Origin: Chiloscyllium plagiosum
Lineage: Eukaryota
Length of the DNA stretch: 64,000 nt
Direction of reading: 5' to 3'
NCBI RefSeq assembly: GCF_004010195.1
Contig: NC_057719.1
Span: forward strand, 13,688,731 to 13,752,730
The position numbers and the translations under genes were made by a program. Below, piece after piece: positions 22,509 through 64,000 of the stretch; position 1 is the first letter of the stretch, and each line of letters begins with the position of its first letter. The notes under the pieces were generated by a model. The model saw nothing but the letters and a program-made list of their open reading frames with translations. It was not told the origin of the DNA and ran no database searches.

Positions 22509-22966
22509 AGCTCTGATGCTGTCTCATTTGTTGGGAGATAGGGTGCGTGGTAGAGATGGAGGCGGGGGTGGGGGGGGGGGGGGGGGAGCTGCTGGTTACT
22601 GGTGGAATAAGTAGTTACATTCAAATACTTAATATTGAAGAGTCACTGCTTTGGATCACATTATAATCGAACCAGCTAAAAAAAAGTAAAGATTACCCAC
22701 CAGTTGGTGAGAAATGTATTATTGATCAAATGATTGTCATAAGCCAATCTTTTCGGTTAAAATGACTCAGAGTAATAACACACTATAATGAATCAAATCT
22801 CTTCTTGCAGGGAGTGTGGCTGCCTCAAAGTGAGCAGGACAACAATTTCACCTGCTTTCTTCAGAACTGGGATTGGGAATGGATTTAAGGGGGAAGAGCT
22901 GCAGTGATTGTTATCAGGTCAGCCAGGTGGACCTCATAGAATATGAGTTCCCTGATTAGGGATATT

Positions 22967-23430
22967 TAGATTAGATTCCCGACAGTGTGGACACAGGCCA
23001 TTTGGCCCAACAAGTCCACACCGACCCTCTGAAGAGTAACTTGGCCAGATCCATTCCCCTATATTTACTCCTGACTAATGTACCTAACACTACGGGCAAT
23101 TTAGCATGGCCAATTCACCTGACGTGCACATCTTTGGATTGTGGGAGGAAACCCACGCAGTCACGGGGAAGTTGTGCAAACCCCATACAGACAGTTACCT
23201 GAAGTGGGAATCGAGCTGAAAATGTGTTGCTGGAAAAGCGCAGCAGGTCAGGCAGCATCCAAGGAGCAGGAGAATCGATGTTTCTGCATTAGCCCTCCTT
23301 CAGGAATCAGGAATCTTTCAGCTCTGATCTCCAGCATCTGCAGTCCTCACTTTCTCCTTGAAGTGGGAATCGAACCAAGGTCTCTGGCACTGTGAGGCAG
23401 CAGTGCTAATCACTGAACCACTGTGCCACC
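22967..23430 (-). mobile_element. HE1-type V-SINE nested in the 5' LTR
   Basis: ttagattagattcccgacagtgtgg tail to cactgaaccactgtgccacc head. Confidence 0.9.
23215..23358. mobile_element. PLE family A derivative with 15-bp TSD, nested in the SINE
   Basis: TSD tgaagtgggaatcga at 23200-23214 and 23359-23373. Confidence 0.85.
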
Positions 23431-25812
23431 TATGTTAAATCAGGGAGCCCCAGCTAACAGATAAAAATGGGAGTGTCAGAGGTTCTGTTCACTCTGAGAG
23501 CTGTCTCAGACTGAGGCAGTACTAAAATAAAGGGTGGTTCATGTGTAGATAAAAGGCAACTTGGTGATGGGATACCAGCCTCTGTGGAGTTACTTCAGTG
23601 GTGAGGAGAGTAAAACACGACTCCAAGGAAACTTGCTCGCAACAGTTATCCTTGAGTTGGGGTAAGCATTTCTTACAGAATTCCTTTATTTGGGAACCTT
23701 GACTCGTTCGAGAACCGGGCCCAGTTTGTGAAAAGAATGCAATATTCTCCCTGGGCAAGTGACATCGTGGCAGATGAAAAGCAACCAGTCTGTCCTGACA
23801 GCCTGCGGGGCCACAGCCTTTTTTGATACTGGGAGCCTAACTTTTCCTGAGGCTCCAGAAAGCAAAACCTTTCAAGTTATTGATGGACATAGTTAAGGCA
23901 TATTATGACCCCCAAGCCTCCTCAAATTCTGAGTTGCTTTCATTTTTACTCAAGTACTGGGGAGAATTTGTACCCAGGAACCTTTGCAGATTAAGGGTTC
24001 AACTTCAGTTCGGGTCTCTTATGAAATTAGTAACCAATAATTGTAGTAAAAGTCTCGGGCCCAAACTTGATAGGACAAAATTCATTGCGACAGATTCACC
24101 TAGATTACCTCAAGTTGAGCTAATTTCAAATTGAGTGAAGTCCTAACTAATACCCAGAAATTTTTTTATGAAGGTCTGGGGATTATCCAGGTGACTTTGC
24201 ACGTTGACCCGGAAGCAATTCCGCATAGCCTAGCCTCCATCCTGGCACCTTTGTATCAAATCCTAAAAAAGGGGTCAGCCTTGAAAATGGTCACATAGAC
24301 AAAACCTACGTTTCAGTGAAGTAAATAAAAAGCTAATATCCTGTAAGGTGTCGGCACACTATACCCCAAGAAAGAGCTAGTATTGACATGTGATGTCTCC
24401 CTGGACCGCATTGGGGTAGTATTCGCTCATAGGTGGCCCTCAATGGAGAGGAACACCCAATAGCTTGTGCATCCAGGATTTTGACGAATGCAAAGTGTTA
24501 ATATGCCCAGAGCAGGAAGGATGGATGGTCATTTTTGGAGTCAGGAAGTACCACCAAAAGCTTTATGGCTGAAAATGTGTGATAATCAAGGACCACAAAC
24601 CCCTATTTGTACAAGACAGAGGACAAAGACAGAACGCAGCTGCTCCCTCACATACGTTGGAATGGCTAGGTAAATCTTGGACTCAGTTGATGTCGGCTAT
24701 GCAAATCCTTTTATGGGCTCACTGTTCTTAGTCACTATGGACACCCACTCAAAGTGGTTGGATGTGCATAGGGTCCATTCATCAAACACGGAGATGATGA
24801 TTGAAAAATTGCACACATCTTTTTTCTATACATGGAGTCTCAGAAGCATTGGTCACAAATAATCAGCCATCATTCACCAGCAGCAAACTTAAGGATTTCC
24901 GAAAGTCAAATGCCATTTGACATATAAGGATAGCTCCATAATCACTCATCATCCAATGGCCTGGCAGAAAGAACAGTCCAAACTTTGAAGGCTGGCTTGA
25001 AGAAATGGCCTACAGCCTCACGAGATACTAAAATGTCACGGTTCGTGTTTATTAGAAGTCCATTGCACATACAACGAGATGAATACCACTGACAGAGTTG
25101 CTAATAGGGAGAAGACTCTGCACCAGGTTAAATCTGATCTTCAAGGACCATGAGAGGAGGGTGAAACAGCATCCAGAATGCCCATGCCAAACACAAGACT
25201 CCCCCATGTGAAAGAAATAGTTTGATACAAGGGACGACATTTGGTGTAAGAATCAAGAAAGTGGCCCTACATGGGTAAGAGATATGGTTGATGTGAGGTC
25301 AGGACCAGTGACCTATAAGGTTCAGGTTGGTGCAATGGTCTTGAACAAGCATGTGAACCATATGAAAGCCACAAAGTCACAAACAATGTGGGAGCAAGAT
25401 GTGCTCTACCCCTCAGAAAGGCTGCTGGAACCCATGGGTTCACCCTCTCCTTCAAGTGCAAACTCTCCAAATCAGAGATGGACATGATGGATATATCTGC
25501 CTCAACACTTTTGCCACTGGAAGAAGAGAGTGAAATTTTACCAAGGTGCTCCTGGTGCAAGAAGCAAACTCCTGTACATTATACATCACTCATATCGATC
25601 ACGGAGTCAGAGGGACCTGACCCAGTTCTAAAATGCCCAAGGAGCCTCTCCAAGAAAGAGGACCGTCCTGTGTCATCGGATTCAGAGAGGGAGGGATGTA
25701 GCAATTGTAAGGAGGTCAGCCAGTTGGACCTCATAGAATATGAGCTCCTTGATTGGGGCTGTTAATCTGGTCCAATCAGGGAGCTCTGTCTGACAGATAA
25801 GAACAGGAATGT

Positions 25813-26034
25813 AACTCTATTTTGATTTAGTCCCTACCCTCCCCTTCACTGTTTTTGATCACACAGCACTGCCCTTTGATGTGTTTTCCTATCTTCCTGG
25901 TGGTGGAATTTGAATAAAGATTCGTGCACTTTGTGTCTTTCACTGTGTCTCACACCTGCACACACACACCATGGGTGCTGGGAAAAAAAAATAAGCACTA
26001 CTGCACTTAGGTGGTAGTGTGGGGGTTCAAAAAC
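25813..26034 (+). mobile_element. Tx1/L1-clade non-LTR retrotransposon, copy 1 (essentially 3' UTR only)
   Basis: Matches the 3' UTR of the neighbouring copies; flanked by aagaacaggaatgt at 25799-25812 and 26035-26048. Confidence 0.8.
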
Positions 26035-26048
26035 AAGAACAGGAATGT

Positions 26049-27094
26049 AACAGATCCAGGCAGTGGGCCGTGGAGGGAGTCGTTAGGGCCGACTGCCTGC
26101 CCCTCTTCCGCGGTTACGTTAGGGCCCGGGTGTCCTTGGAGAAGGAGCACGCGGTGTCCACCAACACCCTGGAGTTATTCAGGGAGAGGTGGGCGCCGCA
26201 GGGAGTGGAGTGCATCATTTCTCCCTCCAACTCTATTTTGATTTAGTCCCTACCCTCCCCTTCACTGTTTTGATCACACAGCACTGCCCTTTGATGTGAA
26301 GGACAGTGTTTGTCACTGGCCACCCGGGTGTTTTCCTATATTCCTGGTGGTGGAAATTGAATAAAGAGTGGTGCACTTTGTGTCTTTCACTGTGTCTCAC
26401 ACCTATACACACACNNNNNNNNNNNNNNNNNNNNNNNNNNNNNNNNNNNNNNNNNNNNNNNNNNNNNNNNNNNNNNNNNNNNNNNNNNNNNNNNNNNNNN
26501 NNNNNNNNNNNNNNNNNNNNNNNNNNNNNNNNNNNNNNNNNNNNNNNNNNNNNNNNNNNNNNNNNNNNNNNNNNNNNNNNNNNNNNNNNNNNNNNNNNNN
26601 NNNNNNNNNNNNNNNNNNNNNNNNNNNNNNNNNNNNNNNNNNNNNNNNNNNNNNNNNNNNNNNNNNNNNNNNNNNNNNNNNNNNNNNNNNNNNNNNNNNN
26701 NNNNNNNNNNNNNNNNNNNNNNNNNNNNNNNNNNNNNNNNNNNNNNNNNNNNNNNNNNNNNNNNNNNNNNNNNNNNNNNNNNNNNNNNNNNNNNNNNNNN
26801 NNNNNNNNNNNNNNNNNNNNNNNNNNNNNNNNNNNNNNNNNNNNNNNNNNNNNNNNNNNNNNNNNNNNNNNNNNNNNNNNNNNNNNNNNNNNNNNNNNNN
26901 NNNNNNNNNNNNNNNNNNNNNNNNNNNNNNNNNNNNNNNNNNNNNNNNNNNNNNNNNNNNNNNNNNNNNNNNNNNNNNNNNNNNNNNNNNNNNNNNNNNN
27001 NNNNNNNNNNNNNNNNNNNNNNNNNNNNNNNNNNNNNAAAATAAGCACTACCGCACTTAGGCGGTAGTGTGGGGGTTTTAAGAAAAAAAAAATT
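26049..27094 (+). mobile_element. Tx1/L1-clade copy 2 (ORF2 end plus 3' UTR, spanning the assembly gap; may be more than one copy)
   Basis: NRSRQWAVEGVVRADCLPLFRGYVRARVSLEKEHAVSTNTLELFRERW; CpG-rich, consistent with a young insertion. Confidence 0.8.
26415..27037. other. Assembly gap (N run)
   Basis: Run of n characters. Confidence 1.
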
Positions 27095-27100
27095 AACAGG

Positions 27101-27686
27101 GAATTCTCCCAGCCCAACTGCTTGTTCTGTGGCGCTGTGGAGTCCGTGGACCACGTGTATATTGGGTGTGGGCGTTTGCACTCCCTTTTTGATTTTCTGA
27201 AAAACCTTCTCCTCTGTTTTTGGCTGCACTTCAGTCCCACGCTCCTGATCTTTGGGCACCCGGTACGGAGGAAGGAGGGCAGGTCTGAAGACCTCCTCGT
27301 GGGTCTGCTCCTGGGCCTGGCCAAACTGGCCATCAACAGATCCAGGCAGCGGGCTGTGGAGGGGGTCATTAGGGCCGACTGCCTGCCCCTCTTCCGCGGT
27401 TACGTTAGAGCCCGGGTGTCTCTGCAGAAGGAGCACGTGGTGTCGACCAACACCCTGGAGTTGTTCAGGGAGAGGTGGGCGCCGCAGGGAGTGGAGTGCA
27501 TTATTTCCCCCTCCAAATTTTGATTTAATCCCTGCCCTCCCCTTCACTGTTTGATCACACAGCATTGCCCTTTGTGTAGGGCACTGCTTGTCACTGGCCA
27601 CTCGGGTGTTTTCCTATCTTCCTGGTGGGTACTGGGGGAAAAACAAGCACTACTTCAGTTAGGCGGTAGTGTGGGGGTTAAAAACA
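27101..27686 (+). mobile_element. Tx1/L1-clade copy 3 (ORF2 C-terminal zinc knuckle plus 3' UTR)
   Basis: CLFCGAVESVDHVYIGC (CCHC motif typical of the L1/Tx1 ORF2 end), LLLGLAKLAINRSR; frame open to 27523. Confidence 0.85.
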
Positions 27687-28165
27687 ATAAACAGGAGTGT
27701 CGGAGTTCTGTAAAATAATAAATAAATAAATAAATAAATAAATAGGAGTGTCAAAACTTCTATTCACTAAAAGAAAAGAACAGGAATGTCAGAGATACTT
27801 ACACTCTGAGAGCTGACTCAGTAATGGGCCGTTCACGTGTAACTAAAGGGTTACTTGGTGACAGGGCGTAGGCCTCTGTGGAGTCATGTCATAGCCATCC
27901 TGAAAGGAAAGAGTGAGTAATTGTAGCAGAGAATACAAATGGGTCAAAATAGGGGTGACTGATGTTTTTTCAAAACACTGACTCGTGTTGAGGTTACCCT
28001 CGACACCTATCCACTCTTGAACATAAAAATGGCAAAGTTAATATGCAGAACAGTAGTTTTGACTTTCCATACATATTAGAAAATACATATCAAGGCTTGA
28101 CAGATAAAATTCCTTTAAAGATTAATTTATATACTTGGTGCATCAGTAGTGACTTTCAGCACTTA

Positions 28166-63777: not shown

Positions 63778-64000
63778 GACCAGTCCAGGCAGCAAGCTGT
63801 GAAGGAAGTCAAATCTGCTGACTATCTGCCTCCTCCTCTGTGGATGTCCTTGGAGAGGGTGCGCGTGGTGTCCAATGATCTCGATGCTTTGGAGAGGTGG
63901 GCACTGCGGCGGATACACTGCTTTATTTCCCCCTCCAACTTCTTTTTAATCCAGCCTCTTCCCTGTCTCCCTAACCCCCTCTTCACTGTTGATAGTTTCC
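63778..64000 (+). mobile_element. Older Tx1/L1-clade fragment related to the 25813-27686 copies (runs off the window)
   Basis: tccaggcagc..gtccttggagaggg..gtggtgtcca..ggagaggtgggc..tttccccctccaact..cttcactgt all align with 27340-27550. Confidence 0.75.

Follow-up and report, generated by a model that had tools for sequence, protein, structure and literature searches.

Behind the last of several 5'-truncated Tx1-type LINE copies, which split the 3' LTR of a decayed LTR retrotransposon at one site, lie two short pieces of LTR target sequence (fragments A and B) that differ from each other and from the local site. Judging from the sequence, these pieces are probably serial 3' transductions, picked up one after the other where the element had earlier inserted into two other copies of this LTR family. 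The features of the locus are collected in Table 1, with positions counted along the window, i.e., the whole 64-kb stretch of DNA that was analysed.

Table 1. Features of the LTR retrotransposon, of the Tx1-type stack within its 3' LTR and of the fragment-bearing tail.
Feature	Position	Strand	Remarks
Decayed LTR retrotransposon, whole	~22900-27891	+	LTR pair, purine tract, weak RNase H match
Upstream (5') LTR, holding the uninterrupted target site	22900..23598	+	BLAST to the 3' LTR halves 87% and 66%
Interruption of the 5' LTR by other repeats	~22962-23430	+	Repeat families D5, D10, D12, D15 inside
Target site, single uninterrupted copy in the 5' LTR	23463..23494	+	TATA-like word ~25 nt after a CCAAT-like word
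Decayed internal region; purine-rich tract ahead of the 3' LTR	23599..25696	+	Putatively Gypsy-like
Left half of the 3' LTR, with the left 14-bp target duplication (25799-25812) at its end	25697..25812	+	
Tx1-type copy 1, 5'-truncated, with 3' stem-loop and short A tail	25813..26034	+	Stem-loop -12.7 kcal/mol
Local 14-bp target, second exact copy, separating copies 1 and 2	26035..26048	+	14/14
Tx1-type copy 2, then N run, then Tx1 3' end with A tail	26049..27091	+	
Degenerate target-like 14-mer, left edge of copy 3	27092..27105	+	9/14 to the local site, 9/14 to A
Tx1-type copy 3, 5'-truncated: ORF2 C-terminus, 3' UTR, weakened stem-loop	27106..27679	+	
Short A-rich tail after the element end (27679)	27680..27691	+	7 nt up to A; AATAAA 27686-27691 straddles the tail and the start of A
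Fragment A, 25 nt, non-local LTR target site	27687..27711	+	Ends 20 nt after AATAAA
(AAAT)n tail, six overlapping AATAAA words running into B	27712..27737	+	Last AATAAA 27737-27742; TRF 27713-27744
Fragment B, 31 nt, non-local LTR target site	27738..27768	+	Ends 26 nt after the last AATAAA
Short A-rich tail, 7 nt, then the local site	27769..27775	+	
Right half of the 3' LTR, headed by the right 14-bp target duplication (27776-27789)	27776..27891	+	

The host repeat is a putatively Gypsy-like LTR retrotransposon. Its internal region gave one weak Pfam match, to RT_RNaseH (E 0.029, below the cut-off, in one of three frames); a Pfam search with five open pieces of this region returned no match, and a PDB sequence search with one internal piece a single irrelevant one (E 0.56). 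Pairwise alignments of the 5' with the 3' LTR matched at 52/62, 33/46 and 78/121 columns. The target site is present once in the 5' LTR, and its TATA-like and CCAAT-like words may, from their letters, be promoter elements. A purine-rich tract is found also ahead of the upstream LTR (22885-22899). With such a tract before both of them, the LTRs may not form a true pair that goes back to a single insertion, and their divergence would then be a poor clock.

The copies of the stack can be placed in the Tx1 clade by ORF2 similarity, which extends over the C-terminus only, the APE endonuclease and RT domains being absent from these truncated copies. With Xenopus Tx1L ORF2, the ORF piece of copy 3 shares 46% identity over 136 aa (E 5e-24), and a relative (P0001) matches the same ORF2 at 41% over 99% of the P0001 length and has a weak match to RVT_1. 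Pfam recognised no family in the ORF piece of copy 3, and the clade was assigned from homologues instead; those of the window's proteins came from cartilaginous fishes, turtles and frog, pointing to a cartilaginous fish as the likely source. A cluster look-up gave no useful names for three of the four proteins, and Rfam gave no match over 27040-27950. The stack contains an N run of 623 bases (26415-27037), and the copies are numbered from the sequence outside it. Copies 2 and 3 have diverged by 7%. Copy 3 is without a block of ca. 70 nt in the 3' UTR (containing AATAAA and a CA run) that copies 1 and 2 have and many reads contain; the break (27628-27629) falls at a short TGG repeat, and loose ends at 27628 were among the 24 listed out of 937. 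A 10-bp stem-loop stands ca. 8 nt ahead of the family 3' end (27647-27672, 25995-26020 and 27045-27070), weaker in copy 3 (-11.2 kcal/mol vs. -17.5 and -12.7 in the other copies). Stem-loops at LINE 3' ends have been noted before (PMC3747384), and this one may set the start of reverse transcription.

Elsewhere in the window the same Tx1-type 3' region is present in an older and diverged copy (63784-63990, 68-78% identity), with no LTR target recognised on its left and a 3' end that runs off the window. A metagenome search with the Tx1 3' end motif gave one match, an exact 21 nt within an intergenic hairpin (L001, 585-621), on a bacterial-looking contig with unrelated flanks, which we took as chance.

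Both fragments are recognisable as the LTR target site. Fragment A aligns with the 5' LTR at 23/28 columns (two gap openings) and fragment B at 24/29, and neither score was reached by any of 2000 dinucleotide shuffles of the LTR. Over both strands of the window, the 5' LTR site was the best non-self match of A and of B (scores 30 and 38, the best unrelated matches scoring 24 and 26), and an ungapped scan of 126,640 positions with that site found B as the only non-self position with at least 20/29 matches. The three versions of the site found behind copy 3 are nonetheless different from each other: A matches B at 19/25 positions and the local site at 17/25, B matches the local site at 20/30, and the local 14-mer agrees with A at 11/14 and with B at 10/14. 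Where the local site differs, A and B both carry the letters of the 5' LTR. The sequence and coordinates of the pieces, their alignment to one and the same LTR position and their mutual differences, all described in the earlier note, are thus borne out by alignments, shuffles and window scan; the length of 25-30 nt given there holds for A (25 nt) and falls slightly short for B (31 nt). The same note had considered an internal tandem repeat of the LTR as another source of the pieces, and the 5' LTR, checked for this, holds a single site.

Downstream of its core, B has three G-to-A differences from the 5' LTR (27752-27768). At 27757 it differs from the 5' LTR as well, and two other runs read the LTR letter there. 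These differences show a one-way bias.

The extra sequence made up of A and B stands between the element end at 27679 and the right duplication at 27776, with an A-rich tail of its own behind each fragment, and the arrangement suggests how it may have arisen. A Tx1 element would insert at the TATA-like word of the LTR, where its A tail together with ATAAA would make an AATAAA. Cleavage and polyadenylation of the read-through transcript 20-26 nt downstream would leave an RNA that ends in target sequence, and by reverse transcription primed at this distal poly(A) the target piece would reach the next LTR. Fragment B would have been gained in a second round, before the last, 5'-truncated insertion landed here with its 14-bp duplication. 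What we infer from this arrangement are the donor loci, the use of the AATAAA words, the transport of both pieces in a single RNA and the order in which the steps took place. The local site (27776-27810) reads AAGAAC and makes no AATAAA with the A tail.

The usual spacing between a poly(A) signal and the cleavage site is 10-30 nt, and the 20 and 26 nt that separate the two junction words from the ends of A and B lie within this range, which fits a poly(A) signal at each junction. The fragments end at GT and CT, unlike the CA at which cleavage often occurs, and this counts against the cleavage reading; no clear U-rich element was seen downstream of the fragments. The absent 70-nt block or the weaker stem-loop of copy 3 could favour read-through, and both may post-date the insertion. 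We also considered that the tail units match the site that follows them ((AAAT)n before B, AAAAG before the local site) and might reflect target-templated slippage, to which we give little weight because A tails commonly decay to such repeats.

At the RNA level, we counted 13 minus-direction reads at 27692, against 133 at 27685 and none at 27704 (in ca. 2% of one single-cell run). Larger groups of reads run into poly(A) as soon as the element ends (102 at 27682 and 114 at 27691), an outcome that oligo-dT priming on genomic tails can give as well, with intronic copies a further possibility. No pile-up of molecule ends was listed. In run X21 (single-cell RNA) the reads over the Tx1 3' region (27520-27680) are one-directional by ca. 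20-150 fold, as expected of sense transcripts or of priming at sense-strand A tails.

We compared the region 27440-27900 in four of 24 runs, of which one RNA and one DNA run came from organism A and the other two from organisms B and C. In organism B, a second species, a single contig spans 27632-27900 including the whole tail, with 19 other letters and eight gaps, and likely represents the orthologous locus. Another sample of organism A gave a contig that covers 27752-27900 with the junction between fragment B and the local site and has a single difference; at 27757 the contigs of both organisms have the same other letter, which is that of the 5' LTR. As independent contigs carry it, the fragment-bearing tail is no assembly artefact, and it is likely older than the split of organisms A and B.

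Summed contig depth falls steeply from the Tx1 end into the fragments. In three DNA runs it was 1.7e5, 5.9e5 and 3.8e5 at the Tx1 hairpin (27655), 1146, 1946 and 2068 at 27692, 30, 41 and 41 at 27704, and 7, 13 and 0 at 27757, values that are no copy numbers and should be read as orders of magnitude (27709-27751 was skipped as repeat). A fall of about four orders between the hairpin and 27704 implies that A and B are not the ordinary tail of the family. Beyond this locus a few contigs reach 27704 in fragment A, two of them in organism B, and the summed depth of organism A at 27704 is ca. four times that of the single-locus contig. These other contigs are candidate donor or sibling loci.

The earlier note had proposed that the fragments are pieces of LTR target from elsewhere, and their position agrees with this. 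They lie between two identical copies (14/14) of the local 14-mer, at the left flank of the stack and at the right local site (25799-25812 and 27776-27789). As the LTR upstream of the stack runs into the local-type 14-mer, A and B are inside material that was inserted after the local site had acquired its present form, and a local origin is unlikely. It is this flank argument that carries the point and not the difference counts. At the 7% divergence of Tx1 copies 2 and 3, differences from the local site at 8/25 aligned bases of A and 9/29 of B would be improbable (P ~2e-4 and ~1e-4), but at the 22% divergence of the LTR pair they are unremarkable (P 0.17 each), so the counts alone leave room for a very old local duplication. 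That A and B are such duplications, derived from tail-only insertions early in the life of the LTR and diverged since, is nevertheless very improbable in our view, for the LTR upstream of the stack continues into a local-type site, identical to the one at the right end (14/14), and not into an A-type one. We find it scarcely credible that the fragments are a fixed part of the Tx1 family 3' end or of the LTR consensus, an explanation already largely refuted at the family level. The few contigs beyond the locus that reach 27704 (depth 30-41) would allow for a very small A-bearing subfamily; on the other side there are, besides the fall in depth and the single site of the 5' LTR, copy 1 and the copy after the N run, both without the fragments.

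Two further explanations accept a foreign origin and differ on the route. One is that A and B are read-through pieces which arrived separately, as heavily truncated orphan transductions or template jumps, the local duplication having each time been lost or replaced by homology at the 5' junction. The site was indeed hit repeatedly, as its three exact target copies (25799, 26035 and 27776) indicate, and orphan transductions exist for SVA and L1 (PMC12593883). However, an exact local-type 14-mer separates copies 1 and 2, and none separates A from copy 3 or B from A; two independent losses would be needed, and we regard separate arrival as unlikely. The other is an exchange at the DNA level, by gene conversion or unequal recombination between Tx1-loaded LTR copies and without any RNA read-through. 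The multi-copy state of both families and the likewise non-local left edge of copy 3 would suit such an exchange; but it should have left continued LTR sequence or random breaks, and the fragments stop 20-26 nt after an AATAAA, each with a fresh A-rich tail, which makes it quite improbable. That left edge is not a clean local duplication (9/14) and lies beside the N run, so the extent of the last insertion is uncertain. The word at 27092-27105 may be a duplication that has decayed or was mis-called close to the N run; if it is a third foreign site instead, all of 26049-27775 could represent a single read-through cDNA, with an upstream copy as its driver. Serial 3' transduction remains the reading that we prefer.

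The target specificity for which the earlier note had argued receives independent backing. The Tx1 end (27677-27684) was found joined directly to the LTR site (27774-27779) in contigs of all three organisms, among the 15 joints listed out of 69; one joint, among the 12 listed of 113 with letters in between, carries a different LTR variant between the Tx1 end and the LTR site, and several of the contigs listed join tandem copies through target-like words. Depth at 27692 is <1% of that at the hairpin, a figure that, with variable tails and contig breaks, is no estimate of the LTR-inserted share. According to the rule of Kojima, a target-specific Tx1 family has >20% of its flanks of one type (PMC4494074).

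The pairing of RNA with the target during priming, which the same note had thought possible, is on the contrary not supported, as the fragments were retained with new tails. Following the logic of target-primed reverse transcription, a read-through piece paired with the nicked target would have synthesis start upstream of it and would itself be lost. The retention of the pieces, with a new tail behind them, thus points to priming at the distal poly(A) in the case of copy 3, by the same logic. Copy 1, without an extra piece, fits pairing and also plain poly(A) priming. R2Ol is helped by the annealing of read-through RNA to the target (PMC6530143), and R1Bm is said to depend on it (PMC7265360). 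Specificity can be explained without pairing, since the Tx1L endonuclease by itself nicks almost nothing but its target (PMC1950540). A more elaborate possibility, doubtful when all its parts are taken together, is that landing at the TATA-like word gives the element its own poly(A) signal, that its RNA would routinely end in a 20-26 nt target guide, and that this guide would normally pair with the next nicked LTR and be dropped, to be copied into DNA only when donor and acceptor mismatch. The nine mismatches between B and the local site fit such a failure, at one locus only. If this were true, such tails would be a log of failed pairing and a genealogy of the LTR loci visited.

Similar behaviours are known, each on its own, in other elements. 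In the concatenated 3' transductions of human SVA and L1, of which 27 have been described for SVA, pieces of flank accumulate serially when the element's own poly(A) signal is bypassed (PMC12593883), much like here. Those pieces come from unrelated genomic sites and have been traced to their sources (PMC12593883), whereas the ones here are 25-31 nt long and, owing to the element's site preference, all stem from one position within a single repeat family. The crocodilian Tx1-8_Crp and Tx1-4_AMi prefer LTR retrotransposons, like the Tx1 element of this locus (Kojima, 2015; PMC4494074), and in the tandem insertions of crocodilian Tx1-Mar and SINEU-3 around a TSD a duplication stands between stacked copies, as it does here (PMC4494074). 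In the portions of that paper available to us 5' transduction or extension is mentioned, but not target pieces carried over at the 3' end (Kojima, 2015; PMC4494074). Tx1L of Xenopus laevis likewise inserts site-specifically into a repeat, although its target, in Tx1D, is a different one (PMC1950540), and its specificity is carried by the endonuclease (PMC1950540), the domain absent from the truncated copies here.

The RNAs of the site-specific LINEs R1Bm, R7Ag and R2Ol extend into the downstream target (PMC7265360, PMC6530143), as we propose for this element, and short tails gave 3' transduction in assays of R7Ag and R1Bm (PMC7265360). These were reporter assays on conserved rDNA targets, in which annealing helps priming (PMC7265360, PMC6530143) and the target piece would not be retained; here, in contrast, the element targets a family of diverged LTRs, and the genome has retained the pieces. 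A literature search over titles and the beginnings of abstracts, with most subscription papers outside its reach, found no report of target pieces stacked behind a Tx1 element nor, within the same scope, of a poly(A) signal made from a tail and TATA. What we describe is a variant in which known behaviours, stacked transduction and LTR-preferring Tx1 insertion, are combined, and not a new principle; it is one tidy example of this combination.

A diverged target family does allow a test that conserved rDNA cannot offer, namely whether pieces are found mainly where donor and acceptor mismatch, as pairing predicts. An AATAAA made at the junction would show the choice of target setting the end of the element's RNA. 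And if the donors were found, such tails would be a natural record, from parent to offspring, of the insertions of a site-preferring vertebrate LINE.
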